DNA of 64,000 nt, from assembly GCF_055900595.2 (NCBI RefSeq), contig NZ_CM148325.1; one strand, written 5' to 3'. Below are positions 20,263 through 61,520 of this stretch, one piece after another (within the stretch, counting starts at the first letter, position 1; the number at the start of each line of letters is the position of its first letter). The notes under the pieces are model-generated. The model did no database searches and was not told the origin of the DNA. It worked only from the letters and a program-made list of their open reading frames with translations. The position numbers and the translations under genes are program-made.

Positions 20263-20328
20263 TATTCCTCCGGTTTAAAATTACCCGGCAGTCAATTCTT
20301 TTTATTCAGGCGAAAAATTCCCCCTGCG

Positions 20329-21054
20329 TTATTCCATTACGCCCGTCATTTTTGGGGTAAGTGCGCCATAATCATTTATTGTTCGGTAAGTAATATTGCT
20401 TCCTGCATCAGAAGGCAATTTAACCGTGCTTTCGCCCATTGGAGGCACCAAGGCATTTTCAAGAACCCGAGTTCCGGCATTCAACTCTGTTACCGTCAGG
20501 TAATAGGGTGTCGGGTTAATCAGCGTCAGAGAATTCGCGCTACGACGAAATCTTAACTTTTCTGCGGCCTGATCGGGTGGCAACGCTAATTTAGCCGGGC
20601 GATAGTACAATTTAATGCGGCTGATAATTGCGAGCTGTAGCGTATTCTCAGTCAATTTTGATTTATCCATTGACGGAATCGCTTTAACGTTCATCCAGAA
20701 TAAACTTTCCCGATCCTGTGGCAATTGGTTATTTGTGGCATCAAGAATACGCAAGGTATTCTCTTTTTTCCCCTTCATCGCAAACAGAGGTGGTGTCACG
20801 ATAAAACGACCATCCTTTACACCATCGGCATTTTCTACCCATGATTGAATTAAATAGGTGCTATTTTCATCATTATTTGTCACGGCAAGTTGTACTTGTT
20901 TTTGCCCTGCCGGATAAATAACGCGAGTCGCACCTAAGGCCACTCCTGCTTCCGCGCGTCCGGCAGCCATCATTGCCATGATCATCAGGATACCTGCCAG
21001 CAAGCAGAATGTTATTTCCTGCAATTTCCTTACATTGACGTTTTTATTACTCAC
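20329..21054 (-). CDS. fimC: Type 1 fimbrial periplasmic chaperone (PapD-like)
   Basis: 241-aa ORF with signal peptide; conserved position. Confidence 0.9.
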   Translation of the reverse strand: MSNKNVNVRKLQEITFCLLAGILMIMAMMAAGRAEAGVALGATRVIYPAGQKQVQLAVTNNDENSTYLIQSWVENADGVKDGRFIVTPPLFAMKGKKENTLRILDATNNQLPQDRESLFWMNVKAIPSMDKSKLTENTLQLAIISRIKLYYRPAKLALPPDQAAEKLRFRRSANSLTLINPTPYYLTVTELNAGTRVLENALVPPMGESTVKLPSDAGSNITYRTINDYGALTPKMTGVME

Positions 21055-21090
21055 TGTCCTGTTCCTGTTATCACATTATCTGCTGAACAA

Positions 21091-21630
21091 TTACTGATAG
21101 GTTAAAGAGAACCAGGCCTGAGCATTGGCGATGCCGCCAGTAACCCGACGCCCGGTAGCACGATATTTGGCGATGAAATGTAACGACGTAGAGCCTGAGT
21201 AAAGCCGTTTCCAGTTTGCTGGAGGACGATTAATCGGTACAAGGTTTCCTTCATCATCAAACAACGCTACGCCAATATTGGTGGCAATCCCTGGCCCCTC
21301 TCCCACGGAAAGCACATCCGGATTTTTACCATCCGCGACACCGTGAAACGCCACACCCACACGTTCACTCACCACCGTGCTACATTCCCGTAAATGAATA
21401 ACAAAAGGCACCGGTGCGCTATCTTCCCCAACCGCATGAAACCGGTTACTGCTGATTTGCCCCATATTGACCGTCATTTGTTTATCACCAGCTTCAATCC
21501 GGCAAGCTTCTGCAATAATGACGCCCTGAAATTGCATATTTCCGCCGGGCAACGTGGTGTTCCATTTATTTCCGGCCAGAGCAAACATTGGCAGCAACGA
21601 CGCTAATAGAAATAATCTCTTCCTTTTCAT
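21091..21630 (-). CDS. fimI: Type 1 fimbrial subunit FimI
   Basis: ORF 21091-21762; start placed at the Met of [19 protein letters not shown] (179 aa) by recollection of K-12 FimI. Confidence 0.8.
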
Positions 21631-21694
21631 CGTTATTTTTATCGCACAAGGGTGGGCATCCCTGCCCATAATGACGTCCCTGAACCTGGGTAGG

Positions 21695-22243
21695 TTATTG
21701 ATACTGAACCTTGAAGGTCGCATCCGCATTAGCAGCACCTGGGGTTGCGGCACCGGTTGCAAAGTAACGCGCCTGGAACGGAATGGTGTTAGTACCGTTA
21801 TTCAGGGTTGTTTCTGCACTAAATGTCGCACCGTCCAGCGCCAGCGCAGCACCGGTTCTGTCCAGAATTTGCACACCAACATTTGTTGCGCTACCTGCAG
21901 CAGAACTCTGCAGAGCCAGAACGTTGGTATGAGTCGCATCAATCGCCGTACCTAAAAAGGCAACAGCGGCTTTTGATGCAACATTGGTATCGCAATCATT
22001 CAGCTGAATGTTAAAACCGACAGCAGAACTGGTTGCTCCGTCCTGTGCCAGCGATGCGGTACGAACCTGTCCTAACTGAACGGTTTGATCAACAGAGCCT
22101 GCATCAACTGCGCAAGCGGCGTTAACAACTTCCCCTTTAAAGTGAACGGTCCCACCATTAACCGTCGTGGCAGCGGCCAGAGCCGCTGTAGAACTGAGGG
22201 ACAGAGCCGACAGAACAACGATTGCCAGAGTTTTAATTTTCAT
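21695..22243 (-). CDS. fimA: Type 1 fimbrial major subunit
   Basis: ORF 21695-22393; start placed at [23 protein letters not shown] (182 aa), the FimA signal peptide; C-terminal ...[10 protein letters not shown] pilin motif. Confidence 0.9.
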
Positions 22244-22361
22244 GCTGCTTTCCTTTAAAAAAACTGTTTCTAAATCGACATGGGCAGTCGTTCTGTACAC
22301 TTTGTTTTGAAACGAATTGGACTGCCAACACTGCGCAGTTCTTCCCCAAAAGATGAAACAT

Positions 22362-22675
22362 TTGGGGCCATTTTGACTCATAGAGGAAAGCATTACGCAC
22401 GAACTTTCTTAGTTTATTATTTGGATTTATATTCTATTAATACATTCTTTTATAGATTTTTATATTGAGCGCGGTGGTTTTTGGAGAGGTGAATGAGGAA
22501 GTTGCTTCGAGACACAGAAACGTTAACTTTACCTATAGCGGAGGTGATGTGAAATTAATTCATAAGAGAAACAATTTACATATCAAACAGTTAGTTGCTT
22601 TATATCGTTTTTTTATATTTTTATGCTTGAGAACAAATACAAAACTTTTTTATGATATGGACAGTTTGGCCCCAA
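22362..22675. promoter_or_regulatory. fimS: fimS invertible phase-variation switch (314 bp) bounded by 9-bp inverted repeats TTGGGGCCA; carries the fimA promoter
   Basis: TTGGGGCCA at 22362-22370 and its reverse complement TGGCCCCAA at 22667-22675 are exactly 314 bp apart (outer edges) between fimE and fimA; sigma70-like TTGAGA-18bp-TATGAT at 22627-22656 lies inside the element. Confidence 0.85.
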
Positions 22676-22722
22676 TTGTCTTATATTTCTTTATCTTTTC
22701 ATATTATTATCAATAAGTTACA

Positions 22723-23319
22723 TCAGGCATCTTCTCTTTTTAATTTTTCGTTTATGAGATTATTTCTTTCCCATAATCCGGCAAAACGTGCAGCATTACT
22801 GGCGGTATAACGCACAGTATGGCGAATATTTCGATGCCCGAGATAATCCTGAATTAAACGGGTATCTGCACCACGCTCCGCCAGTTCATAACCGCAAGCA
22901 TGCCTTAACATATGAGGATGAGTCTGCGTCACGGTTCCAGCTTCAATACCGGCATCGCGAATAATGCGATAGGCCTGCTGGCGAGAAAGTCGACTCCCGC
23001 GGCGAGAAATAAATATGGCGTCGGTCTGGTCAGCGCCTTTCCAGTTAGTACGTTCCTGGGTCCAGCGCTCCACAGCTTCACGCTCATCAAAACGTAACGG
23101 GTGAACGGTAGAAAATCCGTTCTTCAGTCGGCGGATATTTATTCGACCTTCGTTAAGGTCAAGATCCTGATAATGCAGATCAAGCAGTTCACTAATACGC
23201 ATCCCATGCCGATATGCCAACAAAATTAGGCAATAATCTCTGGCTCCCGTTGCCCCGTAACAAACCGCCTGCATCATGTCCTGAACTTCTTTACCGGTAA
23301 GATAACGACGTTTACTCAC
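22723..23319 (-). CDS. fimE: Tyrosine site-specific recombinase (fim switch ON-to-OFF)
   Basis: 198-aa ORF with integrase-family catalytic residues (HxxR...Y: HMLRHACGYELAERGADTRLIQDYLGHRNIRHTVRYT). Confidence 0.9.
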   Translation of the reverse strand: MSKRRYLTGKEVQDMMQAVCYGATGARDYCLILLAYRHGMRISELLDLHYQDLDLNEGRINIRRLKNGFSTVHPLRFDEREAVERWTQERTNWKGADQTDAIFISRRGSRLSRQQAYRIIRDAGIEAGTVTQTHPHMLRHACGYELAERGADTRLIQDYLGHRNIRHTVRYTASNAARFAGLWERNNLINEKLKREDA

Positions 23320-23796
23320 AATAGTAGTACTCCTGACTGAGATATATTTGAATGAATACCTATAGGAAACCTCGATCGGTTAAAATTAGCCCAATAGATA
23401 AAAAGATAACCACACATGAAGTGATGTGGCTATCAGTCAATTACATTAAATATCATACAAAAATAAAATATCACTGATGTGACAACATCTATTTTCATTG
23501 ATTTGATTCAATATAACAATAGATTGCAGCGGATTAACTTCCAGTTGCTTAAAAAATAAAGAAAAAAGTGCAGAAACAGGAGAACTTGAGTGATGTGTAA
23601 ATTTATGAATGATTTTGTTTATTTATTTTGAAGAACATAAACCATTGTATTTTGTATGGATATGGTTAACTTAATGTTTATTATGATAATTAAGAATCAC
23701 ACTTACAATAACATCAATTAATAAATGGTTAATCATTTTTGATATATCGTAAGAATAATGTATTATTTAACACCATCCCTGGTATCTCATCTATCT

Positions 23797-24399
23797 CTAT
23801 AAAACAGCGTGATGCTGTCGTCCTCTGGCTCTATCCCAGATGCCGTAAAAACGCCCTGCATTGCTGGCGGTATACCAGACAGTATGACGAATATTGCGAT
23901 GTCCAAGATAATCCTGGATAAGTCGTGTATCTATTCCCATATTCGCCAAAGCAAAACCACACGAATGGCGTAACATATGCGGATGAATCTCCAGTGATAA
24001 CCCAGCATTACCACCAGAAGTCGAGATAATATGGTAAAACTGTTGCCGAGAAAGCGGGTTCCCCTTACGTGATAAAAATACCCACTCGCTCTCAGCATGC
24101 GGATAAGAAGTACGTATACTCAACCAGTTTTTTAAAGCCTGAACTTCTTTGTTCAATAGCGGGTGCGTTGTTGAAAAGCCTTTTTTTAATCGATGGATAT
24201 ATATACACTTTGCCTTAAGATCAATATCCGAAATCCTCAATCGACAAATTTCACTCGCCCGGAAACCATGAATAAAACAAAGCAAAGTCAGACAATAATT
24301 ACGTGCTGCATGAGGCCCGGTATTTGCTGCTTTAAGGAGTGACTCGATTTCACTATGGGTCAGGAAGTTCCTTTTTTTGTTATCAGCCTTATTCTTCAT
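23797..24399 (-). CDS. fimB: Tyrosine site-specific recombinase (fim switch, bidirectional)
   Basis: 200-aa paralogue of fimE (HMLRHSCGFALANMGIDTRLIQDYLGHRNIRHTVWYT). Confidence 0.9.
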   Translation of the reverse strand: MKNKADNKKRNFLTHSEIESLLKAANTGPHAARNYCLTLLCFIHGFRASEICRLRISDIDLKAKCIYIHRLKKGFSTTHPLLNKEVQALKNWLSIRTSYPHAESEWVFLSRKGNPLSRQQFYHIISTSGGNAGLSLEIHPHMLRHSCGFALANMGIDTRLIQDYLGHRNIRHTVWYTASNAGRFYGIWDRARGRQHHAVL

Positions 24400-25412
24400 C
24401 GTTTTCCCTTATAATTACAGACGCGCACTAGCTGTGCTGGGTTAGCAATAATCCAACATTTTAATCCTGATTATGTTTATAAAAGCGAACGTTTGCTTAA
24501 TAACTAACGTAAGTGGACCAGTTCTTCTGAGTGAACTTAAATGGAGTAGCGATAGTTACTTATAATAACTTTGCCATACAAACGCCATGCTCTTGCATGC
24601 TATGTACCTTTATATATTTATCAATGTGATACGAATCTAATAATAACCCTCATCATTAATGCAACTAATCTTATCTATATATCATGTGATATGTTCTGTA
24701 ACAAGTAAAATCAACATAAAAAATTCAGCAAAATTTAATATTCGTTCAACTAGCCGTCTCACATATGACATTATTAGTCAACTGCATTTGCCACAAAATG
24801 GCTATTTCATGGAACGCAGTAATTTCTTAGCGTCTATTATCATGCTAATTCTTAGGTCCCTAGCGATTATTCCTGTCTGGTTCGTCAACTCACGCCATGA
24901 GATTGTTATATTCCTTTTTATCATGGAGATATGGGGGAAAGCAGGCGACGCTTTTTCATCTACATTCATTGGTAAATATGGCTTTGGTCACTACGTCTTA
25001 AACCTTCTTCAATCACAGCTATTCGCCGGGCGCTACGGCAAACAAACTAAGTGAAGCATCATCCTGAAAACACCATCATCAACAAGCCTCTCCAGATCGA
25101 CTTCAGAAGTGACCAGTTACAAGCCACAAACCTGGAAACATATTTCATGATGAGAATTATGCTCAGCCTGATGGCGGGTAAACACTTATTTTCACCAAGC
25201 TCACTGAGTTAGCTTGCAAAGCTTTCCTTGTTTAGATTCTAAATAAATTATCTATAAAACAGATAGTTAAAAGAAAATCTTTAGTTTTTGAAGACCACCG
25301 CAAGTGTTCGTCTGGCTTCACATGGCATCTTCCTCTTAGAAAAAGATCGACATATTTTGTGACACGAATTGCAAATCTGGTTTTGTTGTATGGATTGCGT
25401 GATTTTTGATCT

Positions 25413-25433
25413 GGTATAACAGGTATAAAGGTG
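25413..25433. promoter_or_regulatory. NanR operator-like GGTATA repeat in the long fimB-nanC intergenic region
   Basis: GGTATAACAGGTATAAAGGTG matches the repeated GGTATA hexamer recognised by the sialic-acid repressor NanR; ~420 bp upstream of nanC. Confidence 0.6.
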
Positions 25434-25842
25434 CACCACGATAGTCAATGAGACTGGGCATCTCGAAATCTATGGCAAACATCACTTCAGTTCTTTCACA
25501 TCGGGTGATGAAAATGCACTTCAGTCTGAAAGGAATATGAAAATGAGATCAACAGACACTCTATTTTATGACTCTGGGTAAAATGGATTGAGTAAGTGAT
25601 ATCGCTTACGAACATTCAAATCAATCAAACATCAGAAGAGATTTTATACTCAGGTATTTAATCTGGATCTCTGTTTATTTAAATAATGTGGAAAGAGATT
25701 TTTCACAGGAGACATTATACAAAAAATATAAAATACAGCTATCGGTTGCCAAAGACACTATAAGCCTGGCAAAAAATATTACACAACATAAATGCTAATT
25801 GTTTATGCGGGCTTTGTATTGCTTTCTGTATCCTACAAATGA

Positions 25843-26568
25843 GTGAAATTTATGAAAAAGGCTAAAATACTTTCTGGCGTATTATTACTGTGCTTTTCGT
25901 CACCATTAATTTCTCAAGCTGCGACACTGGACGTACGTGGTGGATATCGTAGTGGAAGCCACGCCTATGAGACTCGACTCAAAGTCAGTGAGGGATGGCA
26001 AAATGGATGGTGGGCAAGCATGGAAAGTAATACCTGGAATACCATTCATGATAATAAAAAGGAAAATGCCGCACTCAATGATGTTCAGGTTGAAGTTAAT
26101 TACGCGATTAAACTTGATGATCAATGGACGGTGCGCCCGGGAATGTTAACGCATTTTAGCAGCAACGGCACACGCTACGGACCCTACGTAAAACTGTCCT
26201 GGGACGCGACAAAAGATCTTAATTTTGGCATTCGCTATCGTTACGACTGGAAAGCTTACCGACAACAAGACTTATCCGGTGAGATGTCTCGTGATAACGT
26301 TCATCGTTGGGATGGATATGTCACTTACCATATTAATAGTGATTTCACCTTCGCATGGCAAACGACGCTATACAGCAAACAAAACGATTATCGCTATGCA
26401 AACCATAAGAAATGGGCGACGGAAAATGCATTTGTTCTACAATACCATATGACGCCTGATATTACGCCATACATAGAATATGACTACCTTGACCGTCAGG
26501 GTGTTTATAACGGCAGAGATAATTTATCAGAAAACAGTTATCGCATTGGTGTGTCATTTAAACTGTAG
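25843..26568 (+). CDS. nanC: N-acetylneuraminic acid outer membrane channel (KdgM family porin)
   Basis: Signal peptide MKKAKILSGVLLLCFSSPLISQA then beta-barrel-like sequence ending in aromatic residue pattern (RIGVSFKL); start may be 25852. Confidence 0.8.
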   Translation: MKFMKKAKILSGVLLLCFSSPLISQAATLDVRGGYRSGSHAYETRLKVSEGWQNGWWASMESNTWNTIHDNKKENAALNDVQVEVNYAIKLDDQWTVRPGMLTHFSSNGTRYGPYVKLSWDATKDLNFGIRYRYDWKAYRQQDLSGEMSRDNVHRWDGYVTYHINSDFTFAWQTTLYSKQNDYRYANHKKWATENAFVLQYHMTPDITPYIEYDYLDRQGVYNGRDNLSENSYRIGVSFKL

Positions 26569-26587
26569 TAGACAGGAGACAGTCACA

Positions 26588-27694
26588 ATGAATAAAACAA
26601 TAACGGCGCTTGCTATCATGATGGCTTCATTTGCCGCAAACGCGTCTGTATTACCGGAAACTCCGGTGCCATTTAAAAGTGGTACCGGAGCAATTGATAA
26701 CGACACTGTCTACATTGGTTTAGGTAGCGCAGGTACGGCATGGTACAAGCTGGATACACAGGCCAAAGATAAAAAATGGACAGCGTTAGCTGCATTCCCT
26801 GGTGGGGCGAGAGATCAAGCAACCTCTGCATTTATTGATGGCAATCTGTACGTATTTGGCGGCATTGGCAAAAACAGCGAAGGCTTGACTCAGGTATTTA
26901 ATGACGTACACAAATACAACCCCAAAACCAATAGCTGGGTTAAATTGATGTCGCACGCGCCGATGGGCATGGCGGGCCATGTGACTTTTGTACACAACGG
27001 CAAGGCTTATGTTACTGGCGGTGTTAACCAAAATATCTTTAATGGCTATTTTGAAGATCTCAACGAAGCTGGAAAAGATTCAACCGCTATAGAGAAAATC
27101 AACGCCCACTATTTTGACAAAAAAGCAGAAGATTATTTCTTCAATAAGTTTCTGTTGTCTTTTGATCCCTCTACACAGCAATGGAGTTACGCTGGCGAAT
27201 CTCCCTGGTACGGGACGGCTGGTGCAGCGGTTGTGAATAAAGGCGATAAAACCTGGCTTATTAATGGTGAAGCCAAACCAGGACTACGAACGGATGCCGT
27301 ATTTGAACTTGATTTCACCGGTAATAATTTAAAATGGAATAAACTTGCTCCCGTCTCATCACCAGATGGCGTTGCTGGCGGTTTTGCGGGGATAAGCAAT
27401 GACTCACTTATATTTGCCGGAGGGGCCGGATTCAAAGGTTCACGAGAAAATTACCAGAACGGTAAGAACTATGCGCATGAAGGCCTGAAAAAATCATATA
27501 GCACTGATATTCATCTTTGGCATAACGGGAAATGGGATAAATCGGGCGAATTGTCGCAAGGTCGGGCCTACGGAGTATCATTGCCCTGGAATAATAGTCT
27601 ATTGATTATTGGCGGTGAAACTGCAGGCGGCAAAGCGGTAACGGATTCAGTATTGATCTCTGTGAAGGATAATAAAGTCACAGTGCAAAACTAA
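26588..27694 (+). CDS. nanM: N-acetylneuraminate epimerase/mutarotase (Kelch-repeat protein YjhT)
   Basis: Start at MNKTITALAIMMASFAANA (signal peptide) with RBS GGAGA upstream; 368 aa; nanC-nanM-nanS order. Confidence 0.8.
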   Translation: MNKTITALAIMMASFAANASVLPETPVPFKSGTGAIDNDTVYIGLGSAGTAWYKLDTQAKDKKWTALAAFPGGARDQATSAFIDGNLYVFGGIGKNSEGLTQVFNDVHKYNPKTNSWVKLMSHAPMGMAGHVTFVHNGKAYVTGGVNQNIFNGYFEDLNEAGKDSTAIEKINAHYFDKKAEDYFFNKFLLSFDPSTQQWSYAGESPWYGTAGAAVVNKGDKTWLINGEAKPGLRTDAVFELDFTGNNLKWNKLAPVSSPDGVAGGFAGISNDSLIFAGGAGFKGSRENYQNGKNYAHEGLKKSYSTDIHLWHNGKWDKSGELSQGRAYGVSLPWNNSLLIIGGETAGGKAVTDSVLISVKDNKVTVQN

Positions 27695-27731
27695 CGCTTC
27701 AGGGCCCCAGTAAAGGGGCTCTGCTATCAAT

Positions 27732-28559
27732 TTGCCATTTCAATTACGCGAAAATTATATGAACGCAATAATATCGCCCGATTATTACTATGTTCTTACC
27801 GTTGCCGGTCAGTCTAATGCCATGGCGTATGGCGAAGGACTGCCATTACCGGACAGGGAAGATGCGCCTCATCCCAAAATTAAACAATTAGCGAGATTCG
27901 CGCATACGCATCCCGGAGGCCCCTCATGTCACTTTAACGACATTATTCCACTAACTCACTGCCCACACGATGTTCAGGATATGCAGGGTTATCACCATCC
28001 TCTGGCAACGAATCATCAAACACAGTACGGCACCGTTGGCCAGGCACTGCATATTGCACGGAAATTACTGCCCTTTATTCCTGATAATGCAGGGGTTCTC
28101 ATCGTTCCGTGTTGCCGTGGCGGATCGGCTTTTACCGCGGGCAGCGAAGGGACATATTCAGAACGGCACGGAGCCAGCCATGATGCTTGTCGTTGGGGAA
28201 CGGATACTCCGCTATACCAGGATTTAGTCAGCAGAACGCGAGCCGCACTGGCAAAAAATCCGCAGAACAAATTCCTCGGCGTATGCTGGATGCAAGGCGA
28301 ATTTGACTTAATGGCCAGTGACTACGCGTTACACCCTCAACACTTTAATCATATGGTTAAAGCCTTTCGTAGGGATCTAAAACAATACCATTCTCAGCTT
28401 AATAAAATTACTGACGCGCCGTGGTTTTGCGGCGATACCACCTGGTACTGGAAAGAAAATTTCCCTCATGCGTATGAAGCTATTTATGGCAATTATCAAA
28501 ATAATGTTTTAGCCAATATTATTTTCGTCGACTTCCAGCAACAAGGTGAAGAGGACTGA
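27732..28559 (+). CDS. nanS: Sialate 9-O-acetylesterase-like SGNH hydrolase (YjhS/NanS); reading frame ends prematurely relative to a conserved C-terminal tail present in the +2 frame (28550-28738)
   Basis: SGNH-type motif VAGQSNAMAY near the N-terminus; the peptide RGLTNAPDEDPDDLSTGYFGSAYRSAENWTT...FWRER is encoded in a different frame right after the stop, suggesting a 1-bp indel in a short A-run at ~28548-28552. Confidence 0.7.
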   Translation: MPFQLRENYMNAIISPDYYYVLTVAGQSNAMAYGEGLPLPDREDAPHPKIKQLARFAHTHPGGPSCHFNDIIPLTHCPHDVQDMQGYHHPLATNHQTQYGTVGQALHIARKLLPFIPDNAGVLIVPCCRGGSAFTAGSEGTYSERHGASHDACRWGTDTPLYQDLVSRTRAALAKNPQNKFLGVCWMQGEFDLMASDYALHPQHFNHMVKAFRRDLKQYHSQLNKITDAPWFCGDTTWYWKENFPHAYEAIYGNYQNNVLANIIFVDFQQQGEED

Positions 28560-28791
28560 CGAACGCGCCTGATGAAGATCCAGACGATTTAAGCACGGGA
28601 TATTTCGGCTCAGCGTACCGGTCAGCGGAGAACTGGACGACGTCACTGCGAAGCAGTCATTTCAGCGCGGCAGCCCGTCGGGGGATTATTTCTGACAGGT
28701 TTGTAGAAGCAATTTTGCAGTTTTGGCGCGAAAGGTGAGCGTTCATTAATTTGATTTATTCGCATCCATCAACGCTTTTAACTGCTCCGGC

Positions 28792-29270
28792 GTGCGGCAC
28801 TATAATGGTTTTCACAACAAGGAGCCATTTTCTTATACCACTTTCAGAGACCATCCGCTTATGCCACCGCCCTCTACGCAACTGTTTGCAGAGCACCTTC
28901 CCACCGAGTGGATACAGCACCTCCTGACGCTTTCTGCTCATGCGACCATTTGTCGTCTTAACCTGAGCGCGGATGGCGAAGCGGGGATTAGCCTGCTGGC
29001 CCGCAGCGCTGTCACCCAGGAGCGCCAGCGCGTGGGGGCCCCCTGGTGGAATGGCTCTTCCGCCAGACCGCACAGACATGGGGCGCGGAACGTTACCTGA
29101 AGGATGACTGGCACGGCCTGCAACTTTTTGCCATTGATGGCGCACAGTTCAGGACACCTATGAACCTGAGTTGCGTGAATATTATGGCTCTGCCAACACA
29201 TCCACTGAGCGGCAGAGCGCCTACCCGGTCATGCGTCTGGTGGCGTTAATGAATCTGGGAATCACATTCG
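28792..29270 (+). pseudogene. Fragmented DDE-transposase-like remnant (IS element relic) at the left edge of the accessory island
   Basis: Three short consecutive ORFs in different frames (…LFAIDGAQFRTP…, …YPVMRLVALMNLGITFG) consistent with a frameshifted transposase fragment; family not determinable by eye. Confidence 0.35.
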
Positions 29271-29712
29271 GCTGAATGCCATGACCGCGGCCTACCGGCG
29301 GAGCGATACAGCGTGAGGCAACTAAAGCGGCGTCAGAAATCAGCTTTAAGTTCGCATTCCTGTTTATCGTGACAGAAATGATAGTGCAGGGAAATACGGC
29401 GTCACCAGGAACCATCCCGAAACGGCTGGAGCATCTGCGGGGTGCTCTGGAAGCGGTGTTCCCACGACTATCAAGGCCGAGGGCTGTTAAGGTATCAAAA
29501 ACCCGTTATCCGGTGAAACACAGTGCTGCCCCGCTTAAGTGACGGCATTGTGTTTCTGACTGGCCTTAACTTTCCCTGAATCTCTGACGATCCTCACCAT
29601 TGATATTTTCTTCATTCCTCACCAGAGAAATAAAAAATCACTATACTCATCAAAATATGATGATTACCTTTATTCAGGTGATCACCTTACTATTTTATAC
29701 GGAAAATAAATC

Positions 29713-30363
29713 ATGAATATCCGTCAATCATTACATGACCGAATCTATGCAGAATACCCTCAACAGGCTAAAGATATATTACTGTATTTCCCCACTTATG
29801 AAATTATGCCATCGACCATAAAAATGGTTATGATTAATGAGGTGGTAGCTATAACACCGCAAGAAGATTTTTATACACCAGAGTCTGGTTATTTTACGAC
29901 TGTCGCCCGACAGTTAGCGCTGGCTGGATTATCGGCAAGTAGTGGCGAAGTCTTACTCAACCATGGTATCTACCTGACCTCCGCACTGAAACTACCTAAA
30001 ACACAGATCACAGCCACACCCGCGGAGATCATTCTCTGGTCACCTATTGTAGAATGGGAGCTCGAACTCTTTGCCAATATAAAAGTTATTTTCGTTGGCG
30101 GCGATATCGCGCGAAAATGCCTTAACATCATCGCGAAAAAGCAAACACGTAAACATGCCATCCCTTCAACTCCGACGTACAAACTGATGAATAGCGAATT
30201 AGTCTGGAAAGGAATAAGCATACTTCCTGGATATATTCTTACCGGAAAAAACCTGCTCATTGAAAAGTCAAAAATCGAAATGAATGTCGAACAATTAAGA
30301 AAAGGAATTGCGATTTATCGCAATAGTAACAGTAACCATACGAATAATTCAGTTCATGAATAA
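29713..30363 (+). CDS. Hypothetical protein (216 aa), orphan gene in AT-rich DNA at island edge
   Basis: Uninterrupted ORF with plausible start context; no motif I can confidently assign. Confidence 0.45.
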   Translation: MNIRQSLHDRIYAEYPQQAKDILLYFPTYEIMPSTIKMVMINEVVAITPQEDFYTPESGYFTTVARQLALAGLSASSGEVLLNHGIYLTSALKLPKTQITATPAEIILWSPIVEWELELFANIKVIFVGGDIARKCLNIIAKKQTRKHAIPSTPTYKLMNSELVWKGISILPGYILTGKNLLIEKSKIEMNVEQLRKGIAIYRNSNSNHTNNSVHE

Positions 30364-30876
30364 GAGATGAATCATTAATAACAAGAAATCACTGACAAAC
30401 CACCTGTAAAAGGTCAATCATTTTAGTTCAATTTCCTTTGTCATGATTATATTTTTATCGTCCTGACGATACTATTAACAATTACAATATTTATACCCTC
30501 CCCTGAACAAACAGAAAAGAACTCATACATTCGTTTATAATTCTGGTAATCCTGGCATCATACGTTTAAAATTTAAGGTGTTTGTTTTATAATCATGGTT
30601 CCAAAGACTATTGGTCACCAGAAAATGCCAGCCTTTTCGTGCCAGCTATATTTGTCCAGTGTGTTACCCCATCCAAAAATCATCCACATCCTGATGTTAC
30701 GTTAGATATAGAGAAAACAGGTTGTACTGTGCAATATGCTAACCGCATAAGCGAATATAATTTCTAAGCTGATATTGTCTGGCTGTTGGGAGCTAAACAA
30801 TATAAATATCGCCAGTTGCCAGAACGGTTATATAGACCAGGAGCGTTTCGGCTCCTGGTCTGTTTCGGACATATTA

Positions 30877-32991
30877 TCAATCAGCCACTAATAGCGGACT
30901 AGGGATACCAGATGATGAAACAAACAGCCCTTTTACGGCACGGGTTGCAGCCACATGCAGTAACGCGCGCTCATTAAATAATGCATCACGCTGTTCAACG
31001 GGATCATCGGATGCTAATGCTTTTATTTCCGGCACAACGCCTTCGTTAATCCCCACCAGGAACACATACTGGAACTCAAGCCCTTTAATACGGTGCATCG
31101 TTGCAACTCGCACGCCTGGGCGTGCATCGCTGTCACCGCTATCATTGCCTAAATTAAATGTCTCAATTCCGGCGTCATTGAGTGCTGATGCGTAGCGGTC
31201 GCAAGCATGTTTAGTACGCGCAGTAATGCAGATATCCTGAGAACGAACCTGATTCGCCAGCAATGCCTGAATTTGCTTGACGAGCGTTGCAGCCTCTTCT
31301 TTGAAATCTGCCGCATGCGTAATCATGGGCTTTTCCCCGTGCAGTAATGACAAATAATCATTACTGGTATCCGCTTCGCCATCGAGGTTATCAACCTTCA
31401 CACCAGTTAACAGCCCAACAGCAAATTGACGCGTCTCTTCTGTGGTCCGATAGTTAATCTTCAATTTTTTACTGCGACGACCACGGACGTTAATACCACA
31501 CTGACCAAGAACGACCTTATTGCGATAAATACGCTGATGCCCATCCCCGACAATAAACAGATCGTTGGGCGACTCGGGAACCAGGCTGCGAATAAGAGTA
31601 AATGCCGGGGCACCGATATCTTGAGCTTCATCGACGACAATACTGCTATAAGGTAGTTGGACCTGCTTTTCTTTAAACAGAACAATAGCCTCATGCATGG
31701 CATCGCCCATTTCGCGCAGTTTGGCACGCGCCATTTGTGCTCTGAATTCTTCGAAAACTGGCCAGATTTTCGCCCGTTGAATACGGGATAACGCTGTACC
31801 ACGTCCAACCCGGCTGACTTTGAGGTATTCCTCCCGGGTGTAAACCGCATTTGGCTGGACAACGCGTTGCCACTCTTCAGCATAGAAATTGTCAGGTAGC
31901 CCCAGTTCGGCAGGTGCCTGCTGCAAGGCATAGTTCCAGCATTTACGTCGCCCTTCATCGCTGTCGTATACCACGCGGAAATCATAACCGTGGCGTTTTA
32001 GTTGGTCGCTCATCCAGGCATCAATGTTAACGACGTCAATACGCGCCATCTCTTCTCGCGTACACAACCGCTGGAGATTAGCGCGAATATCTGCCGCCAG
32101 GTTACGCGTAAAGGTCGTGAAAAGTACCTTCTTACCGGGTTTATCTACCAGACGCTGAGATAACCACCGCGCACGGTGCATTGCAACAACCGTTTTCCCT
32201 GTACCTGCACCGCCCAGTACTCGTACCGGACCATTAGCGGGCGACTCCACCAGTTTTCGCTGGCTCGGGTGCAGAAATACACGCCATTTTTCTAAAGGCG
32301 CATTAAGCATCTGCAATAGTTCCTGTTCATTTTCAACGACATGGAAGCGACGTTTACTTCGTTCAATCGCCTCCATAAAGTCGTTGGTATCAACAGGCTC
32401 ATCACGATGATCGTTAAACTCTTCCAGCACTTCCTGGTAATCCAGCCCTTCTGCCAGCCAGTGCAGAGGTTCCCAGGCTTCTGCTGGCATTATGCTTTCA
32501 AGTTGATTAAGCCCGGCTTCATCGGTAAGCGCCATCACCTGATCAATAAAGACAGGCGGCACACCCAGGGCCAGAATCTGTTCCGCGCTGTAAGCTGCGA
32601 AGAGTTTCGGTTTATCAACCACCGTTTCCGCTGCCGGTTTGATATAGCTAATATCAATGACCTGAATCGCGCCAGTAACCGGGTGAATCGAACAATCATG
32701 CCGCCGCGCCCAGTCATATGCTTCGTCGTGTTTATCCACCCACATCAGCATATACAGAGCACCCTGTTCAGGTTTCAGAACAATGCCGCGATAAGTTTGA
32801 TCGATTCGCACCGAATGGACATTTTTACTGCGCGCATCGTGGATCTTTTCATAGTTAAGTCCATTACTGGTCGGGTCCTGACGGAATTTGGAGATGAATT
32901 CCTGCACCTTTTTTTGCTGTGCTTTTGGGATCCGCGCGAATGCGCCCAGAAAACCATCAGAAAGTGCCACCTTGGGCGTTTGCACCGTCAT
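30877..32991 (-). CDS. UvrD/PcrA-like superfamily 1 helicase with ~230-aa N-terminal extension (YjhR-like); last gene of the DISARM-like operon
   Basis: Walker A VLGGAGTGKTVVAMHRA, Walker B IVVDEAQDI, C-terminal UvrD_C-like motif ATMHRIKGLEFQYVFLVG; start overlaps upstream stop (ATGA at 32988-32991). Confidence 0.8.
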   Translation of the reverse strand: MTVQTPKVALSDGFLGAFARIPKAQQKKVQEFISKFRQDPTSNGLNYEKIHDARSKNVHSVRIDQTYRGIVLKPEQGALYMLMWVDKHDEAYDWARRHDCSIHPVTGAIQVIDISYIKPAAETVVDKPKLFAAYSAEQILALGVPPVFIDQVMALTDEAGLNQLESIMPAEAWEPLHWLAEGLDYQEVLEEFNDHRDEPVDTNDFMEAIERSKRRFHVVENEQELLQMLNAPLEKWRVFLHPSQRKLVESPANGPVRVLGGAGTGKTVVAMHRARWLSQRLVDKPGKKVLFTTFTRNLAADIRANLQRLCTREEMARIDVVNIDAWMSDQLKRHGYDFRVVYDSDEGRRKCWNYALQQAPAELGLPDNFYAEEWQRVVQPNAVYTREEYLKVSRVGRGTALSRIQRAKIWPVFEEFRAQMARAKLREMGDAMHEAIVLFKEKQVQLPYSSIVVDEAQDIGAPAFTLIRSLVPESPNDLFIVGDGHQRIYRNKVVLGQCGINVRGRRSKKLKINYRTTEETRQFAVGLLTGVKVDNLDGEADTSNDYLSLLHGEKPMITHAADFKEEAATLVKQIQALLANQVRSQDICITARTKHACDRYASALNDAGIETFNLGNDSGDSDARPGVRVATMHRIKGLEFQYVFLVGINEGVVPEIKALASDDPVEQRDALFNERALLHVAATRAVKGLFVSSSGIPSPLLVAD

Positions 32992-35900
32992 TTGTCACCT
33001 CCGGACAGATGTTGCAATGTAATTTCGTCAATTGGCCCGAATGCAACGTGCCAACCCCTGGTTGTGAATAATGGAATAAATTCTTGATTATCAATAATCA
33101 ATGCCCATTTTTGTGATGGCCAGGCGAGATCGGCTTCCGCAATAATTTCACCTTCATCATTTTGCAATTCGTAGCCGAGAGTCGGCGCAGAGAGAGAATG
33201 AGACTGAAGCAACGCGATCTCTTCAGCGCTTAATAAGCCAAACTCAATAATCTCAGCCCAACTTTCATCAGTCTCTGGTACTGCCTCTGGCGTTGCCGTA
33301 ACTTTAACGTCAACGCTTTCCTGCGGTAAATGCACGGCTTTACGGCTGGTAAAGGTCATATCCGGCAGGAACTGTAACAGGTTTACCAGTCGCCAGAAGC
33401 CATTGAGTCCCGCTTCATAACCGTCATCCTGCGTATAGCGATCGTCAAAACAGATATGCAAACGCAGCCAGCTGCGCATTTGTGCGACACTGGTCGTCGG
33501 TTTAATGGCTTGTTGTGGCAACACCGAAGCCAGCTCAATAAATTGCTGCGATGAGTTACAGCTATCGAGTAAACCACCAAAGACAAACGGTTCGTCTGGC
33601 AAAAGCTCTGCTAGCCGCCAGGCTGGCGCGTTTTCCTGCATTTCATAGGCATACTTTTGTTTCGTTCCCGCGTCCTGTGACTTCTTCACATCCAACCACA
33701 CCCAGGCATGTGCAGCAGCCATTCTCTGCCATAACTGCGTTCTTCCGCCCGGATCGGCGAGATAATCCAGCAGCAGTGCAAAACTGTTGCGTTCCCGGAA
33801 CGACGCTTCAAGGGCCGCAAAGTTGGTATCGTGAAACAGGTTATAAAACTTAGGCTGTTTCATATCCGGGTTATGCCCAAGCCCCAGGACATCCTGAACA
33901 TGTTTAAGCCCAGGCTCTTTGAGATCGGCCCACGTGACTGTCCACACCCAGAAATTATCGCTATCCCGAATCGCCTGGCGTTTTTGCACATCCTCTGCGA
34001 CGCTATTTTTGTGAAACGCAAAGCCATCAAGGAAAATAGCTACCGGTTTAATGGCATCAGACTGCATAAGCGGATATAGCACGTAATCCGGGCGACAAGG
34101 GATCCCCACTGCCTCTTTAGCGCCTAAATCCACCTGAGCTTTAAGATGCCAGCTCATCATCGGTTCGCTGCGGGTGTTAATAATCCACCCAGCGCCCTGA
34201 TGCGCGTAACTGCGACTGACAATCAGGTTTTTATTTTCTTGCAGGCAGCTAATAAACCGTTTTTCCAGCTCACTGCCCATCATGGCTTCGAGGGAAATGT
34301 TTTTGATGGAATCAATTACCCGTATCGAATCTCTTGCCTGCAAAATTTTCGCCAGCAAGAGACGCGCCTGATCGCGGGAGACATACTTCATGCGCCCACG
34401 GTCACGGTAAGCGTAAACGCAACGATAACAACCATCTTTATGCGTATCATGGTTGCAACTGCATTCCACTATCGCCTGATAGGCCAGTTCAAGTAATTTC
34501 AGCAAATTGTCGGGAGTGCGCATCAGCTCTTTAAGAGAACCAGTCCCCCCCGGGACGGTATCGTAAATCACCAGATACTGCCGCCAGGATTCGCCTTCAT
34601 TTTCCGGCTCGCGGTACACAACGCCTTTCAGGTGATCGACATTCCCCTTGAAGTAATGTTTAAGGCCGAGCTGGATCGCCGCCCCAAGAGAAGCCTCCAC
34701 GACACGGTCATTACTGTAACTGCTTACCGGGAGCAGAATTCGCAACGCTTCTGACTCCAGCTGGCGATAGAGATAGAGATAATCTTCGAACTTCGCCTTT
34801 TCCGGTTCCGTGCGATATTTGCAGCTCAAATCATGACGTGGTTCATGATCGCGAGGACGCTGTACCATGCCGCACCCCAGGCAAACTTTAAACCCGGTTC
34901 GCTTCTTCGCTTCTCCGGCAATCATCAACTCATTGGCATCATCCGCCATTTTGCCGAAGTTGATATCCCGCAGGGTGACTTTGCTTAAAAATTCAAAACC
35001 AAACGGAACTTCGCCTTCCTCAATCGCGTATGCCGCCGATACATCTTCTTTTTCGAAACTAACCAATAGCTGACGCTGGAAGAAAGCAGGTTCACGGCTG
35101 TCGCTCTCGTCGCTGATCTGGCTATCACGTGCGCTGGCGCGGGCATACACCTGGCGAAGTTTCAGCAGCGTGGTTTTTTGTCCGGCGTCGGCCCACCCCG
35201 GTGTGCCACATTTCGGGCAATATTTATGCTGGTCGCCCGTCTGGTCGATATTTTCGCTGTAGTTACAGTGGCTACAGATACGCCAGTTCTCCGGCTCAGA
35301 GACCTTCAGGTCTATCTGCTCAATTTCAACTTTATGCCCACCGGCATAGAAATTATTCAGCGGAGCCAGCTCAGCCAGCGCCGTTGATGCCGGGCGTTCA
35401 TATTCGAAAGTGGTGTTTTGATATTCACGCGCTTCCCCGCCTTCTTTACGCCGCCAGAGCACAGAACGTAACGTAATACCGGCTTCCGGAAAGGCGTAGT
35501 TAGGCAGCAGACCTTCATCCGTGAGGAAATTCAGCGTCTGCTTATTGTTGATTTGATTGACTAGCGCCATCAGCGCCTGCCGTTCTGAAGTTAACTCGCG
35601 CATATCGCTGTCAAAGTTTTGATCGCGCGGCGCGTTCTCCAGCTTATCGATACTGCGCTTGAGTTTATCGATGCGTGAACGCAGAGATTTGCGATCTTCC
35701 ACCAGCAGTTTTAACGCCTCTTCGATACGCTGCACCAGAGAGCGTTGTCCTGGCGCGCCCTGAAGATAAGACAACAACTGTTGGCGAGTTTCTGCGGCAA
35801 GATCGGGGAAGATCGCCGTAAATTGTGCAGCAATCTCCGCATGATGCTGTTCGATATATCTCAGTAAGTTATACGGAAAACCCGATTTACGCCCGAACTC

Positions 35901-38900
35901 CAGCTCATCCAGCATCTGTTTGACGTTTTTACAGATAGCGGATTCTGGTACACCGGTTTTCACCCAGTTATCCATACAAAAAGCTGCCAGCTGGCGTTCG
36001 AGAATAGCCGTTGCATTGAGGAAGACGCCAGGAGCCTGCACCTGGCCCTGCATCATCTCCAGCGGTTCTTCAAAGAAAAACTGATCGTGCGGGTTCCCTT
36101 CTGCCACGGTAATGTTTAACGCGTTACCATCTTTACGACCGGCGCGACCAATACGCTGCAAGTAGTTGGCCTGAGCAGGTGGGACAGAACAGAGTAAAAC
36201 GGTGGAAAGATCCCCAACGTCAATACCCATCTCCAGCGTCGGTGTTGCCGACAACAGGTTGATATTCCACGGTTGGTTGCCGCGGTAGAACGATTTTTCG
36301 GTGGCTTCGCGATCTTCACGGCTAAGCAGCCCCGTGTGTTCTGCGCCCTGCACGCGCGCGATGTCCATGTTCTCCCAACGCCAGGTCGCCATATTGTCGA
36401 CTTCCTGGTAACGACCTTCACAACGTAAAGAGAGACAAGGCGCATTACGCCACTGCCAGCCTTGATCGGCCGGAGCCCGGACAACCTCACGGCAACATGA
36501 ACAATTAAGCTGAACGACGTCACGGCTCACCACCAGCGCAGAAGGCACCAGTCCCCAGGCTTCACGCCCTTTGGTGTCAAAATCTTTTACTACTCCGGCT
36601 ATTTTCAACGCCGTAAACAGGCGTCGTAACACTGTTTCCGCAACGCTACTGATAAACAGATTATTGCCGTTACTCAGCGTGCGATTGATCCAATGCTGAT
36701 ACCAACTGGGGTTAGACTTCGCGCCAATCAGGCGATGGAAACCATTAATTTTTTCAAACGACGCATAAGCCGGTTTACGCGTTTTCGGACCGATAGAAGG
36801 CATATAGCGCGAGGTACGCTCTTTTTGCGTCATCATAAAGGTCGTGCCATCACGGCGATAACTTTCGAACGTCGGATGCATAACGGCCCCGGCCTGGCGT
36901 TGATACCAAATAACCCCCAGCGCCAGGTGCGCGACCTGCTCGACGCTCACACCGGACATCTCATCACCCAGCTCTTCACAAAGCTGTTGATGCAGGGCGG
37001 TAATTGCCGGATTAAAGCGTTCTTTATCCACTCCGGCAACGGCATAACCGGTGGCTTCCAGCGTACGTCCGATACGCGCGCGCAGGGTAAATTCGCTGTA
37101 CACCTCCCAGTCGAGGCGCAGGGAAACCAGCTCCGGCAGATCGGAGTTCTCCGCCAGTTTGCCTTCATTTTTCAGTGTCTGATAATCATTCAGCCACTGC
37201 ATATTTGGTGCGATGAAGTTCGCTGCAAAATGAGCATCGTCCGGTGAACGTTCACGCGTTTGTTGGCAAACACGCGCCGCGAACGCATCCAGCGGTAATG
37301 TCTCTTTTTCGCCAAGAACACTGGCGATTTGCCCACGAATCATCAGCGGCCAGGTACGGGCAGTAAAGAAGCTGGCACGATGCGCGGCGTCTTGTACCGA
37401 GTCAGAAAACGTAATCAGCTTTTTATGTTCGTTGAACTGGCTGCCATAAAGCTGGTGAATCATCACCGCCGACAGACTGGCAGCCCGTGACCCCAGAATC
37501 GAAATCCCCTGTTTGCTGTTGCAGTACGGGCATTCATTAGCAAACTCCAGCTCGTCCTTACGCTCTTTGAGCATATCCGGGATCAGTACCTGCAACAGTT
37601 CCGTATGACCGCAATGTCCACACTGGACGCTGGACTGTCGGTTCAGTTTCAGACAGATAGGGCACAGTTTCTGGTGTGCGCCACTGACCGCTTTTTCGTT
37701 GTTATCCGGGAAAGCAAGGACGATGGAGCGCCCTTTTTCAAAGAACTGGCGATAAATGCCGTCGAGGTCTGTTTCCAGCTGAACGCTTTGCCCATGACGC
37801 AGGCTGGCCCAGCCGGTTGCGTGGCAGTCACGGCAGTGGATAACCGGCAAATAGTGTTCGCGATCTTCCACCGCCACATCATCGGCAAACACCAGTCTCG
37901 GCGTTTTCGCCACGCTGGCGACCAGACGACGCATCTCACGAAGCCACAACTGGGAACGCAGTTGCACAAACGGCAACACCGGGCGCGCTTTCTTCGCCTG
38001 GAGACGTTTTTGCCGATCGTGTTCCGTTTCCGGTACTTCGAGACGTGCCTGCGCGATCAGCGCCAGAATGCTTTGCAGCACGCGTCGGGCATGGTCGGCG
38101 CTTTCTGCCAGCATGACCTGGAGATTTTCCAGACACTCTCGTTCAGAGAGGATCCCGCCTTGCAGATCATGGAGTAAGACATGCATCACGCTGTGGCGGC
38201 GTAACAGTGACCCCAGCGCAATACGCTTTTCGCGCCCGTCGTCGCTCTCCAGATCGTCCGGGAGTTGCAAGTCGCTGTCGGAGAACCACAAAGGGATTTG
38301 TCCGTTGAGATACGCCACCGGGGTAGCGTAACTCTGCGGGTCCAGCGCCGAAGCGACCTCCGGCCCCGGATACTGACTGTACGCAATGGCGTAATCCTGC
38401 AAGTACTCCGCTGCCGTGTAGCGATCTTCGCGAATAACGGCGTCATCGGTAAACGGCTGGTCAAAGATTGTTTTTGCGTAATCGAGCAGTTGCCCCAGTT
38501 CGTCGCCGACGGTAGCTGATGTCCCGACGCAGGCGAATCGTTGGTTATCCACACCTATGTGATGCTTCAGACGTCGCACCAGACAGGCCAGATCCGACCC
38601 TTGCGCGCCATCAAACGTATGCAATTCATCCACGACCAGGTAACGCAATGAACCGGGCTGGTTGTAACGCCAGAGCGGCTGATCGCCAGGGCGCATCAGT
38701 AGGTAGTCGAGCATTTTGTAGTTGGTCAACAGGATGTCCGGCGGGCTTTCGCGCAGCGTGTGCTTACAGGTAATGACCTTTTCTGCCGACATTTTTTTGC
38801 TGGGTTCGATTTCGCTGTCGCCGACAAACAATCCGACGGTCACCTTGCCATGCAGTTGTGGATCGCTGGCGATGGTTTTGGCGAAACGGCTGGCCTGATC

Positions 38901-39329
38901 GGTTGCCAGGGCGTTCATCGGGTAGATGATAATTGCTTTAACCCCGGCTTGTGACGCGCCCGCGCAGTGGTTGAGCAGCGGGAACATAAAGCATTCTGTT
39001 TTACCGGAGCCGGTACCGGTAGCGACCAGTGTCGGCTGTGGCGCGTCGCATCCCAGACGCTGAAATGCCCGGGCCTGATGCGCGTGCGGCGGGAACGGCA
39101 GCGTCAGATTAGGGAAAAAATTCAGCGGTAAGTCACTTTTACGAAACGGCAACTGGGCGGAAAGGTATGGTCCTTTCAGCAGCGTTTCGGGCTGGGCCAG
39201 AAATTGCTCCAGCATTGAGACATTATCGTTATTCTCACCGTTAAACAGCGGGCTGTTTAGCGGGAACGCCGCCCGTAAAAAGGCGGCAACGCTGTCGGCG
39301 ACCTGCCGACTGACAACGGACGGCAACAT
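32988..39329 (-). CDS. Giant (2113 aa) DEAH-box helicase with C-terminal Cys-rich Zn-ribbon region (DUF1998/MrfA-like); fused DrmA+DrmB-type or DruE-like protein
   Basis: Motif I LVATGTGSGKTECFMFPLL, motif II YLVVDELHTF, motif VI QRIGRAGRKDG; Cys clusters CSHCNYSEN...CPKCG, CLGCGMV, CSCNHDTHKDGCYRC; start overlaps upstream stop by 1 nt (TGATG at 39327-39331). Confidence 0.8.
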   Translation of the reverse strand: MLPSVVSRQVADSVAAFLRAAFPLNSPLFNGENNDNVSMLEQFLAQPETLLKGPYLSAQLPFRKSDLPLNFFPNLTLPFPPHAHQARAFQRLGCDAPQPTLVATGTGSGKTECFMFPLLNHCAGASQAGVKAIIIYPMNALATDQASRFAKTIASDPQLHGKVTVGLFVGDSEIEPSKKMSAEKVITCKHTLRESPPDILLTNYKMLDYLLMRPGDQPLWRYNQPGSLRYLVVDELHTFDGAQGSDLACLVRRLKHHIGVDNQRFACVGTSATVGDELGQLLDYAKTIFDQPFTDDAVIREDRYTAAEYLQDYAIAYSQYPGPEVASALDPQSYATPVAYLNGQIPLWFSDSDLQLPDDLESDDGREKRIALGSLLRRHSVMHVLLHDLQGGILSERECLENLQVMLAESADHARRVLQSILALIAQARLEVPETEHDRQKRLQAKKARPVLPFVQLRSQLWLREMRRLVASVAKTPRLVFADDVAVEDREHYLPVIHCRDCHATGWASLRHGQSVQLETDLDGIYRQFFEKGRSIVLAFPDNNEKAVSGAHQKLCPICLKLNRQSSVQCGHCGHTELLQVLIPDMLKERKDELEFANECPYCNSKQGISILGSRAASLSAVMIHQLYGSQFNEHKKLITFSDSVQDAAHRASFFTARTWPLMIRGQIASVLGEKETLPLDAFAARVCQQTRERSPDDAHFAANFIAPNMQWLNDYQTLKNEGKLAENSDLPELVSLRLDWEVYSEFTLRARIGRTLEATGYAVAGVDKERFNPAITALHQQLCEELGDEMSGVSVEQVAHLALGVIWYQRQAGAVMHPTFESYRRDGTTFMMTQKERTSRYMPSIGPKTRKPAYASFEKINGFHRLIGAKSNPSWYQHWINRTLSNGNNLFISSVAETVLRRLFTALKIAGVVKDFDTKGREAWGLVPSALVVSRDVVQLNCSCCREVVRAPADQGWQWRNAPCLSLRCEGRYQEVDNMATWRWENMDIARVQGAEHTGLLSREDREATEKSFYRGNQPWNINLLSATPTLEMGIDVGDLSTVLLCSVPPAQANYLQRIGRAGRKDGNALNITVAEGNPHDQFFFEEPLEMMQGQVQAPGVFLNATAILERQLAAFCMDNWVKTGVPESAICKNVKQMLDELEFGRKSGFPYNLLRYIEQHHAEIAAQFTAIFPDLAAETRQQLLSYLQGAPGQRSLVQRIEEALKLLVEDRKSLRSRIDKLKRSIDKLENAPRDQNFDSDMRELTSERQALMALVNQINNKQTLNFLTDEGLLPNYAFPEAGITLRSVLWRRKEGGEAREYQNTTFEYERPASTALAELAPLNNFYAGGHKVEIEQIDLKVSEPENWRICSHCNYSENIDQTGDQHKYCPKCGTPGWADAGQKTTLLKLRQVYARASARDSQISDESDSREPAFFQRQLLVSFEKEDVSAAYAIEEGEVPFGFEFLSKVTLRDINFGKMADDANELMIAGEAKKRTGFKVCLGCGMVQRPRDHEPRHDLSCKYRTEPEKAKFEDYLYLYRQLESEALRILLPVSSYSNDRVVEASLGAAIQLGLKHYFKGNVDHLKGVVYREPENEGESWRQYLVIYDTVPGGTGSLKELMRTPDNLLKLLELAYQAIVECSCNHDTHKDGCYRCVYAYRDRGRMKYVSRDQARLLLAKILQARDSIRVIDSIKNISLEAMMGSELEKRFISCLQENKNLIVSRSYAHQGAGWIINTRSEPMMSWHLKAQVDLGAKEAVGIPCRPDYVLYPLMQSDAIKPVAIFLDGFAFHKNSVAEDVQKRQAIRDSDNFWVWTVTWADLKEPGLKHVQDVLGLGHNPDMKQPKFYNLFHDTNFAALEASFRERNSFALLLDYLADPGGRTQLWQRMAAAHAWVWLDVKKSQDAGTKQKYAYEMQENAPAWRLAELLPDEPFVFGGLLDSCNSSQQFIELASVLPQQAIKPTTSVAQMRSWLRLHICFDDRYTQDDGYEAGLNGFWRLVNLLQFLPDMTFTSRKAVHLPQESVDVKVTATPEAVPETDESWAEIIEFGLLSAEEIALLQSHSLSAPTLGYELQNDEGEIIAEADLAWPSQKWALIIDNQEFIPLFTTRGWHVAFGPIDEITLQHLSGGDK

Positions 39330-44251: not shown

Positions 44252-44253
44252 GA

Positions 44254-60822: not shown

Positions 60823-60903
60823 CATATGCTATGGTTAGCCTTATATTTAAAACTTTCCTCATACGGGTGAAGGTTAAAGCTTGGTAGATAGGTTACAGTC
60901 ACA

Positions 60904-61513: not shown

Positions 61514-61520
61514 GCGTTCA

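Follow-up and report, generated by a model that had tools for sequence, protein, structure and literature searches.

A probable inherited loss-of-function allele of the chromosomal nanS gene in one clonal lineage of Escherichia coli

Introduction

What has become of nanS, the chromosomal sialate 9-O-acetylesterase gene, in an Escherichia coli strain whose nanS frame closes well short of the usual end while the missing tail can still be read in another frame? The stretch of DNA that raises this question, a single strand of 64,000 nucleotides (hereafter the window), had first been described from its letters and open reading frames (ORFs). That preliminary description proposed either that a 1-bp deletion had removed the end of the esterase or that a base had been lost in sequencing. 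The answer bears on a defined phenotype, as nanS mutants do not grow on Neu5,9Ac2 according to the section of PMC3658417 that cites Steenbergen 2009. We compared the locus with intact alleles, with other assemblies, and with complete E. coli genomes. We conclude that nanS in the window is very probably a real, inherited loss-of-function allele, that is, a pseudogene.

Results

The nanS frame is broken at codon 264

The window covers the E. coli fim-nan region in the reverse of the K-12 orientation, with uxuRBA, gntP, and fimHGFDCIA-E-B on the minus strand. From ORFs and Pfam matches, nanC, nanM, and nanS all lie on the plus strand in the order fimB, NanR operator, nanC, nanM, and nanS, and the nanCMS synteny is shared with K-12 and four other genomes. 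The features discussed below are collected in Table 1.

Table 1. Positions in the window of the nanCMS operon, the nanS lesion, and features of the adjoining segment
Feature	Coordinates	Strand	Basis or remark
NanR operator upstream of nanC, GGTATA aca GGTATA aa GGTGCA	25413-25435	+	Identical to K-12
nanC, intact, 238 aa, KdgM-family porin	25852-26568	+	Pfam KdgM, E=1.4e-28; nanC annotation in syntenic genomes
nanM, intact, 368 aa, N-acetylneuraminate epimerase/mutarotase	26588-27694	+	Pfam NANM, E=1e-117 over 23-366; nanM annotation in syntenic genomes
Truncated nanS	27759-28559	+	ORF, 266 aa; residues 1-263 are NanS, then EED and TGA
1-nt deletion site, codon 264	28548-28549	+	Pairwise alignments and K-12 codon context
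Premature TGA	28557-28559	+	ORF reading
Out-of-frame nanS 3′ remainder, residues 265-326 and original stop	28550-28738	+	Translation and K-12 alignment
ythB-like small ORF, 29 aa	28657-28746	-	ORF; Pfam YthB call in sister loci
Left copy of 59-bp direct repeat	28734-28792	+	Right copy at 61509-61567
UvrD/GajB-like helicase	30877-32991		PADLOC
DruE-like helicase, 2113 aa	32988-39329		PADLOC
Type IIG-like or DrmMI-like methyltransferase, 1640 aa	39329-44251		PADLOC
DrmD-like SNF2 helicase, 952 aa	44254-47112		PADLOC
Druantia type III	DruE 47336-53659, DruH 53650-57009
Zorya type II	ZorA 57221-58873, ZorB 58880-59587, ZorE 59591-60694
nanM′-′nanS fossil	60884-61513	+	DNA identity to nanM 94%, to nanS 86%

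The nanS ORF starts with the ATG at 27759, runs for 266 codons, and ends in FVDFQQQGEED before the TGA at 28557-28559; the preliminary description had given this stop and the last residues (QQGEED) correctly. It had also proposed that a different frame from 28550 encodes a conserved NanS tail. That frame reads RGLTNAPDEDPDDLSTGYFGSAYRSAENWTTSLRSSHFSAAARRGIISDRFVEAILQFWRER up to a stop at 28736-28738 and is identical to residues 265-326 of K-12 NanS at 58 of 62 positions (94%), without gaps (E=4e-41). An alignment of positions 27700-28800 with the two complete genomes that match best, EC42405 (98.9%) and Z1323HEC0462 (97.7%), showed exactly one gap, between 28548 and 28549. Relative to intact 326-aa alleles, this is a single 1-nt gap in codon 264, which bears out the proposed 1-bp deletion. 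The premature TGA arises from the frameshift and follows three aberrant residues (EED) placed after residue 263. Both marks of a frameshift pseudogene were thus found, an indel relative to intact orthologues and homology that carries on in the shifted frame.

The identity of the lost base depends on the reference. In EC42405 and Z1323HEC0462, the codons are GGT GCA AGA GGA CTG (G-A-R-G-L) and the haplotype reads GGTGCAAGAGG, so that a C is absent from the window, where the codons from the deletion site are GGT GAA GAG GAC TGA and the letters around 28545-28555 of the deleted allele are GGTGAAGAGG. In K-12 and E2863, the codons are GGT GAA AGA, with Glu264, and the sequence reads GGTGAAAGAGG, so that one A of a 3-A run is absent. 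An exact 62-mer of the GCA form was present in 372 of 5,001 genomes. Because the tail haplotype of the window (Y283F, P290A, and A296S) is that of EC42405, the loss of a C appears the more parsimonious reading, favored by the nearest haplotypes. Neither of the two "repaired" 326-aa proteins, with Ala264 or Glu264, was found by look-up in a collection of 15 billion proteins. The earlier description of the site as a homopolymer did not hold up, as only two to three A residues stand there, whichever base was lost.

We note that a ythB-like ORF lies antisense to the nanS 3′ end, inside the now untranslated tail, and is unchanged by the deletion. K-12 ythB (b4802) overlaps nanS in the same way.

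The shortened product would lack the catalytic base

Intact NanS is 326 aa long in K-12, O157 (PDB 3PT5), EC42405, Z1323HEC0462, and E2863; all five reach residue 326, none ends at the stop seen in the window, and the 266-aa ORF falls short of full length. The crystal structure of the O157:H7 protein (PDB 3PT5) spans residues 2-326. Its SGNH blocks were assigned in a structural survey (PMC10792757) as block I at 17-21 (GQSNA), block II at 120-125 (RGGSAF), block III at 178-183 (MQGEFD), and block V at 267...303, ending in SHFS. The catalytic residues are Ser19 and His301, and the usual catalytic Asp is absent, in the account that PMC9063846 gives with reference to Rangarajan 2011. In the window ORF, residues 17-21 are GQSNA, so block I with the nucleophile Ser19 is present, as are blocks II (RGGSAF) and III (MQGEFD). 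The ORF also retains a match to Pfam SASA (PF03629; E=4.1e-13, 49.9 bits against a cut-off of 24.8). No in-frame block V with His301 was found in the ORF; the codon for His301 occurs solely in the shifted frame, at 28550-28735. Residues 264-326 are lost, and with them the whole of block V (the acid-base zone, 267-303), His301, and the C-terminal helix.

We infer that the 266-aa product is a dead esterase, unable to deacetylate Neu5,9Ac2, because the catalytic His301, whose role we take from secondary literature, lies in the lost segment. The product is also predicted to be unstable, probably, and no growth on 9-O-acetylated sialic acid would be expected from the nanS locus alone. That the strain lacks the last ∼60 residues, as first suggested, is supported by the alignments, the homology in the shifted frame, and the recurrence of the truncated protein on 77 contigs (see below). 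A polar effect on the operon is not expected, because nanS is its last gene and nanC and nanM are intact.

Loss of the chromosomal enzyme could nevertheless be silent if prophage-encoded nanS-p esterases elsewhere in the genome still gave access to 9-O-acetylated sialic acids, the loss then being neutral by redundancy. Prophage NanS-p proteins have esterase activity and sustain growth on Neu5,9Ac2 in EHEC O157:H7 and O104:H4 (PMC8065619), many pathogenic E. coli strains carry several nanS-p copies (PMC3658417), and the contigs that bear the allele reach 5.35-5.49 Mb, which leaves room for many prophages. However, the window itself contains no nanS-p, and its sole other nanS-like sequence is a fossil of ∼115 nt. 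We regard this redundancy as a serious possibility, on balance an unlikely one.

The deletion recurs in independent assemblies

The preliminary description had named a sequencing error as the alternative to a true deletion; nanS would then be intact in the strain, and one base would have been dropped at the short A-run in base-calling or polishing. Single-base indels are the commonest assembly error, the base missing relative to K-12-type alleles is one A of AAA, and the downstream frame is fully open and conserved, as an intact gene would give. However, a run of two to three A residues is not an error-prone homopolymer, and the same product recurs across NCBI, ENA, and Logan assemblies. By exact-protein look-up, the 266-aa protein was on record on 77 contigs, the longest of 5.49 Mb, and in 108 index blocks; its sources were NCBI (EPD7827730.1, EPD7993604.1, EPE0358685.1, and EPF3887928.1), ENA, Logan, and UniRef (UPI0026CF9D80). 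These 77 contigs may represent one clone sequenced repeatedly, and they support the base call, not a broad distribution. A 48-mer spanning the deletion was not found by exact search among GTDB species representatives or JGI metagenome contigs, so support for the allele comes from the protein-collection look-ups. Two assemblies from separate projects, GCA_052815395.1 and GCA_964249055.1, carried the same deletion and had 2 and 1 SNPs, respectively, relative to the window in 6.8 kb; because these SNPs separate them from the window, they are sister isolates and not duplicate records.

The indel profile of the assembly points the same way. Over ∼50 kb of the window aligned to EC42405, the nanS deletion was the sole uncompensated coding indel, and the remaining indels were intergenic or formed compensated runs in divergent stretches (the DUF2686 gene and fimA). 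Of the five indels in the 14.4-kb block that contains nanS, four lie upstream of nanC, and the next 10.8 kb held none. An error-prone assembly is further disfavored because the very long ORFs of the window (2113, 1640, 952, 2107, and 1119 aa) are unbroken. The independent assemblies and the clean indel profile led us to reject a sequencing error, which we judge to be very improbable.

Relative to EC42405, small indels that compensate one another cluster at 9199-9856, within a DUF2686-family ORF (9019-9939), and at 22040-22055 in fimA. These clusters are divergent alleles and not errors, and most indels between EC42405 and the window fall within them.

Residual function, recoding, and a split gene find little support

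If the base call is sound, the truncated protein might still keep a function, either as a residual esterase that uses another base or by binding O-acetylated sialic acid, and be maintained for it. The ORF still contains Ser19, the residues of the oxyanion hole, and blocks I-III, its SASA match is unchanged, and NanS lacks the usual catalytic Asp to begin with, as the secondary account in PMC9063846 has it. Against this, the base His301, the entire acid-base zone, and the C-terminal helix are gone, and the shortened form was not seen in other lineages (0 of 5,001 genomes). SGNH folds are not known to withstand the loss of block V. A retained function thus seems most unlikely.

Full-length NanS might instead be restored by a programmed −1 ribosomal frameshift or by transcriptional slippage near 28548-28556. 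A −1 shift is indeed what would be required, and the open tail frame has 94% identity to residues 265-326 of K-12 NanS. However, neither a slippery heptamer (X XXY YYZ) nor a long homopolymer, that is, a run of at least four identical bases, was found in positions 28530-28559, GACTTCCAGCAACAAGGTGAAGAGGACTGA, and the deletion site itself has no run of more than two identical bases. The other genomes encode NanS in a single frame (the deleted 61-mer being found in none of 5,001), and recency explains the conserved tail, the sisters differing by 1-2 SNPs per 6.8 kb. Recoding is therefore extremely improbable, and programmed frameshifting, slippage, and phase variation were rejected for want of a slippery site or repeat tract. 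A split gene yielding a two-polypeptide enzyme was likewise dismissed, as the tail frame lacks its own start codon and no ORF of at least 20 aa starting with ATG, GTG, or TTG was found in it.

The allele appears confined to one lineage

The nanCMS/nanS locus was present in 5,001-5,032 of 5,426 complete E. coli genomes. An exact search with a 61-mer carrying the deletion matched none of the 5,001 complete RefSeq E. coli genomes that have the locus, and we therefore read the deleted allele as confined to a single clonal E. coli lineage without close kin among the complete RefSeq genomes. The nearest of these reach a best identity of ∼99.2-99.3% elsewhere in the window. In the 15 records that the 61-mer search listed, the frameshift site bears no annotated feature.

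Three residues of the window NanS, K40, A186, and L191 (within 27759-28548), differ from all four intact alleles compared. Nonsynonymous and synonymous differences in intact nanS alleles stood at 4:4, 12:7, 13:11, and 14:12, which suggests that nanS is under weak constraint in general. Because nonsynonymous changes already equal or outnumber synonymous ones among intact alleles, relaxed selection after inactivation is not readable from such counts.

The NanR operator is built of three GGTATA repeats, and nanCMS carries one such operator (PMC3658417). The sole SNPs between the window and the two sister assemblies in 6.8 kb sit within this 23-bp operator, which lies at ∼655-677 of the two sister loci, with 25420 C>T in both GCA_052815395.1 and GCA_964249055.1 and 25435 A>G in GCA_052815395.1. 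In K-12, NanR binding in the fimB-nanC intergenic region also controls fimB. Because a fixed nanS null coincides with sister SNPs that both fall inside the operator, the nanCMS arm of the sialoregulon might be under selection in this lineage and not merely decaying; with two sister loci to go on, we consider this improbable. If true, it would imply adaptive loss or rewiring of O-acetyl-sialic-acid use and of type-1 fimbrial switching, for example after a shift of host or niche.

The second nanS-like sequence is a remnant at the edge of a defense island

The preliminary description had also reported a second copy of the tail at 61400-61510. The tail is indeed kept there, as positions 61397-61513 correspond to the last ∼40 codons (∼115 nt) of nanS at 86% DNA identity, with a 12-nt gap and with SSHFS retained; the element is not a second nanS, however. 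Positions 60884-61399 match the region upstream of nanM and its first ∼165 codons (∼500 nt of the 5′ part), to which they are 94% identical; one extra nucleotide in an A-run shifts the nanM frame. The two parts are joined at a TCA microhomology. From this arrangement, we read 60884-61513 as a deletion fossil (nanM′-′nanS) and not a second gene.

A perfect direct repeat of 59 bp, comprising the nanS stop region and the sequence downstream of it, brackets 32,775 bp. In E2863, which lacks this segment, nanS adjoins the HNH genes (61521-63180 in the window) directly. Because the repeat brackets the segment and nanS abuts the HNH genes in E2863, the 32,775 bp look like an island that was inserted or recombined beside nanS. 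No integrase was seen in the segment, only a remnant of an IS4-like transposase. The part from 30877 to 60694 is a defense island with Druantia type III and Zorya type II. PADLOC matches for the four-gene set at 30877-47112 were scattered over several families and do not indicate a single named system. EC42405 has the same island arrangement. A 12-kb query (20000-32000), which reaches 3.2 kb into the island, was covered to at least 80% in 448 of 5,426 genomes, a figure that gauges the spread of the island only indirectly.

Further features were observed along this segment. The IS4-family transposase remnant (Nterm_IS4) occupies 28792-29540, right after the 59-bp repeat, and is split into several short ORFs. 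The syntenic IS4 gene is annotated as "frameshifted" in both EC42405 and Z1323HEC0462, which makes this an old pseudogene common to these genomes. A conserved 216-aa ORF (29713-30363; WP_001026378.1 in other genomes) with no Pfam match lies at the island edge nearest to nanS. Two divergent HNH-domain genes lie at 61521-63180 and form the ancestral flank of nanS; the minus-strand gene encodes 216 aa (HNH), and its plus-strand neighbor encodes 309 aa (HNH_2). The syntenic HNH gene of E2863, of 291 aa, is annotated as a "phosphorothioated DNA-binding restriction endonuclease" and is presumably the counterpart of the 309-aa gene.

Discussion

Our preferred reading is an inherited null allele. Loss of one nucleotide in codon 264 throws the sequence out of frame, so that three wrong residues are followed by a stop at codon 267. 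The shortened product retains Ser19 and SGNH blocks I-III but not residues 264-326 with the base His301. The tail, though no longer translated, has stayed open and hardly changed, which points to a probably recent event. The strain would lose the NanS activity of this locus, and nanC and nanM of the operon remain intact.

The deletion has little import beyond strain-level annotation. It makes an ordinary pseudogene, specific to one lineage, out of an accessory gene that is well characterised. We predict that the strain and its clonal relatives have no chromosomal NanS activity and are unable to use the 9-O-acetylated sialic acids of mucus unless a prophage nanS-p is present. The gene should be labeled a pseudogene; public records name the 266-aa product plainly "sialate O-acetylesterase". 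Being absent from 5,001 complete RefSeq genomes, the deletion also offers a clean lineage marker.

In the compared loci of EC42405 (3060-4040) and E2863 (741-1721), RefSeq/PGAP calls nanS an "incomplete, missing C-terminus" pseudogene (345 or 567 nt), yet the 326-codon ORF is intact, and a 29-aa hypothetical (YthB-like) protein is called opposite nanS. These partial calls look like an annotation artefact. Because intact nanS is marked as a partial pseudogene in at least two genomes, counts of broken nanS based on annotation would mislead, and the sequence itself must be checked.

Among known systems, the closest is E. coli NanS itself (YjhS; K-12 b4309; PDB 3PT5); by sequence and by synteny (nanC-nanM-nanS beside fimB), the window gene is its orthologue. 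Residues 1-263 of the window protein are about 95-98% identical to intact E. coli NanS and share Ser19, blocks I-III, and the SASA domain; unlike b4309 and 3PT5, the window ORF ends at 266 aa and leaves block V and His301 untranslated. The prophage NanS-p proteins of STEC/EHEC have a homologous SASA esterase domain, act on the same substrate, and could compensate for the loss (PMC8065619), whereas nanS in the window is the short form, chromosomal and regulated by NanR. The nanM′-′nanS fossil is likewise a decayed nanMS remnant and preserves the same C-terminal NanS coding sequence. In contrast to the nanS allele, it arose by an internal deletion of ∼1.5 kb together with a frameshift; at 86-94% identity it is far older, and it is found in many island-bearing E. 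coli strains, so that it is not lineage-specific.

The nanS-negative state is itself documented, with nanS lacking from E. coli ATCC 8739, SE11, and UMNK88 (PMC3658417) and nanCMS missing from about 7% of isolates (PMC10088187). The predicted outcome in the nanS-less strains is the same as here, namely no chromosomal NanS activity. In those strains the locus is absent, whereas in the window nanS is present but frameshifted and nanC and nanM are intact, a decay by point mutation. A frameshift in nanS thus adds a further way of reaching a nanS-negative state already on record.
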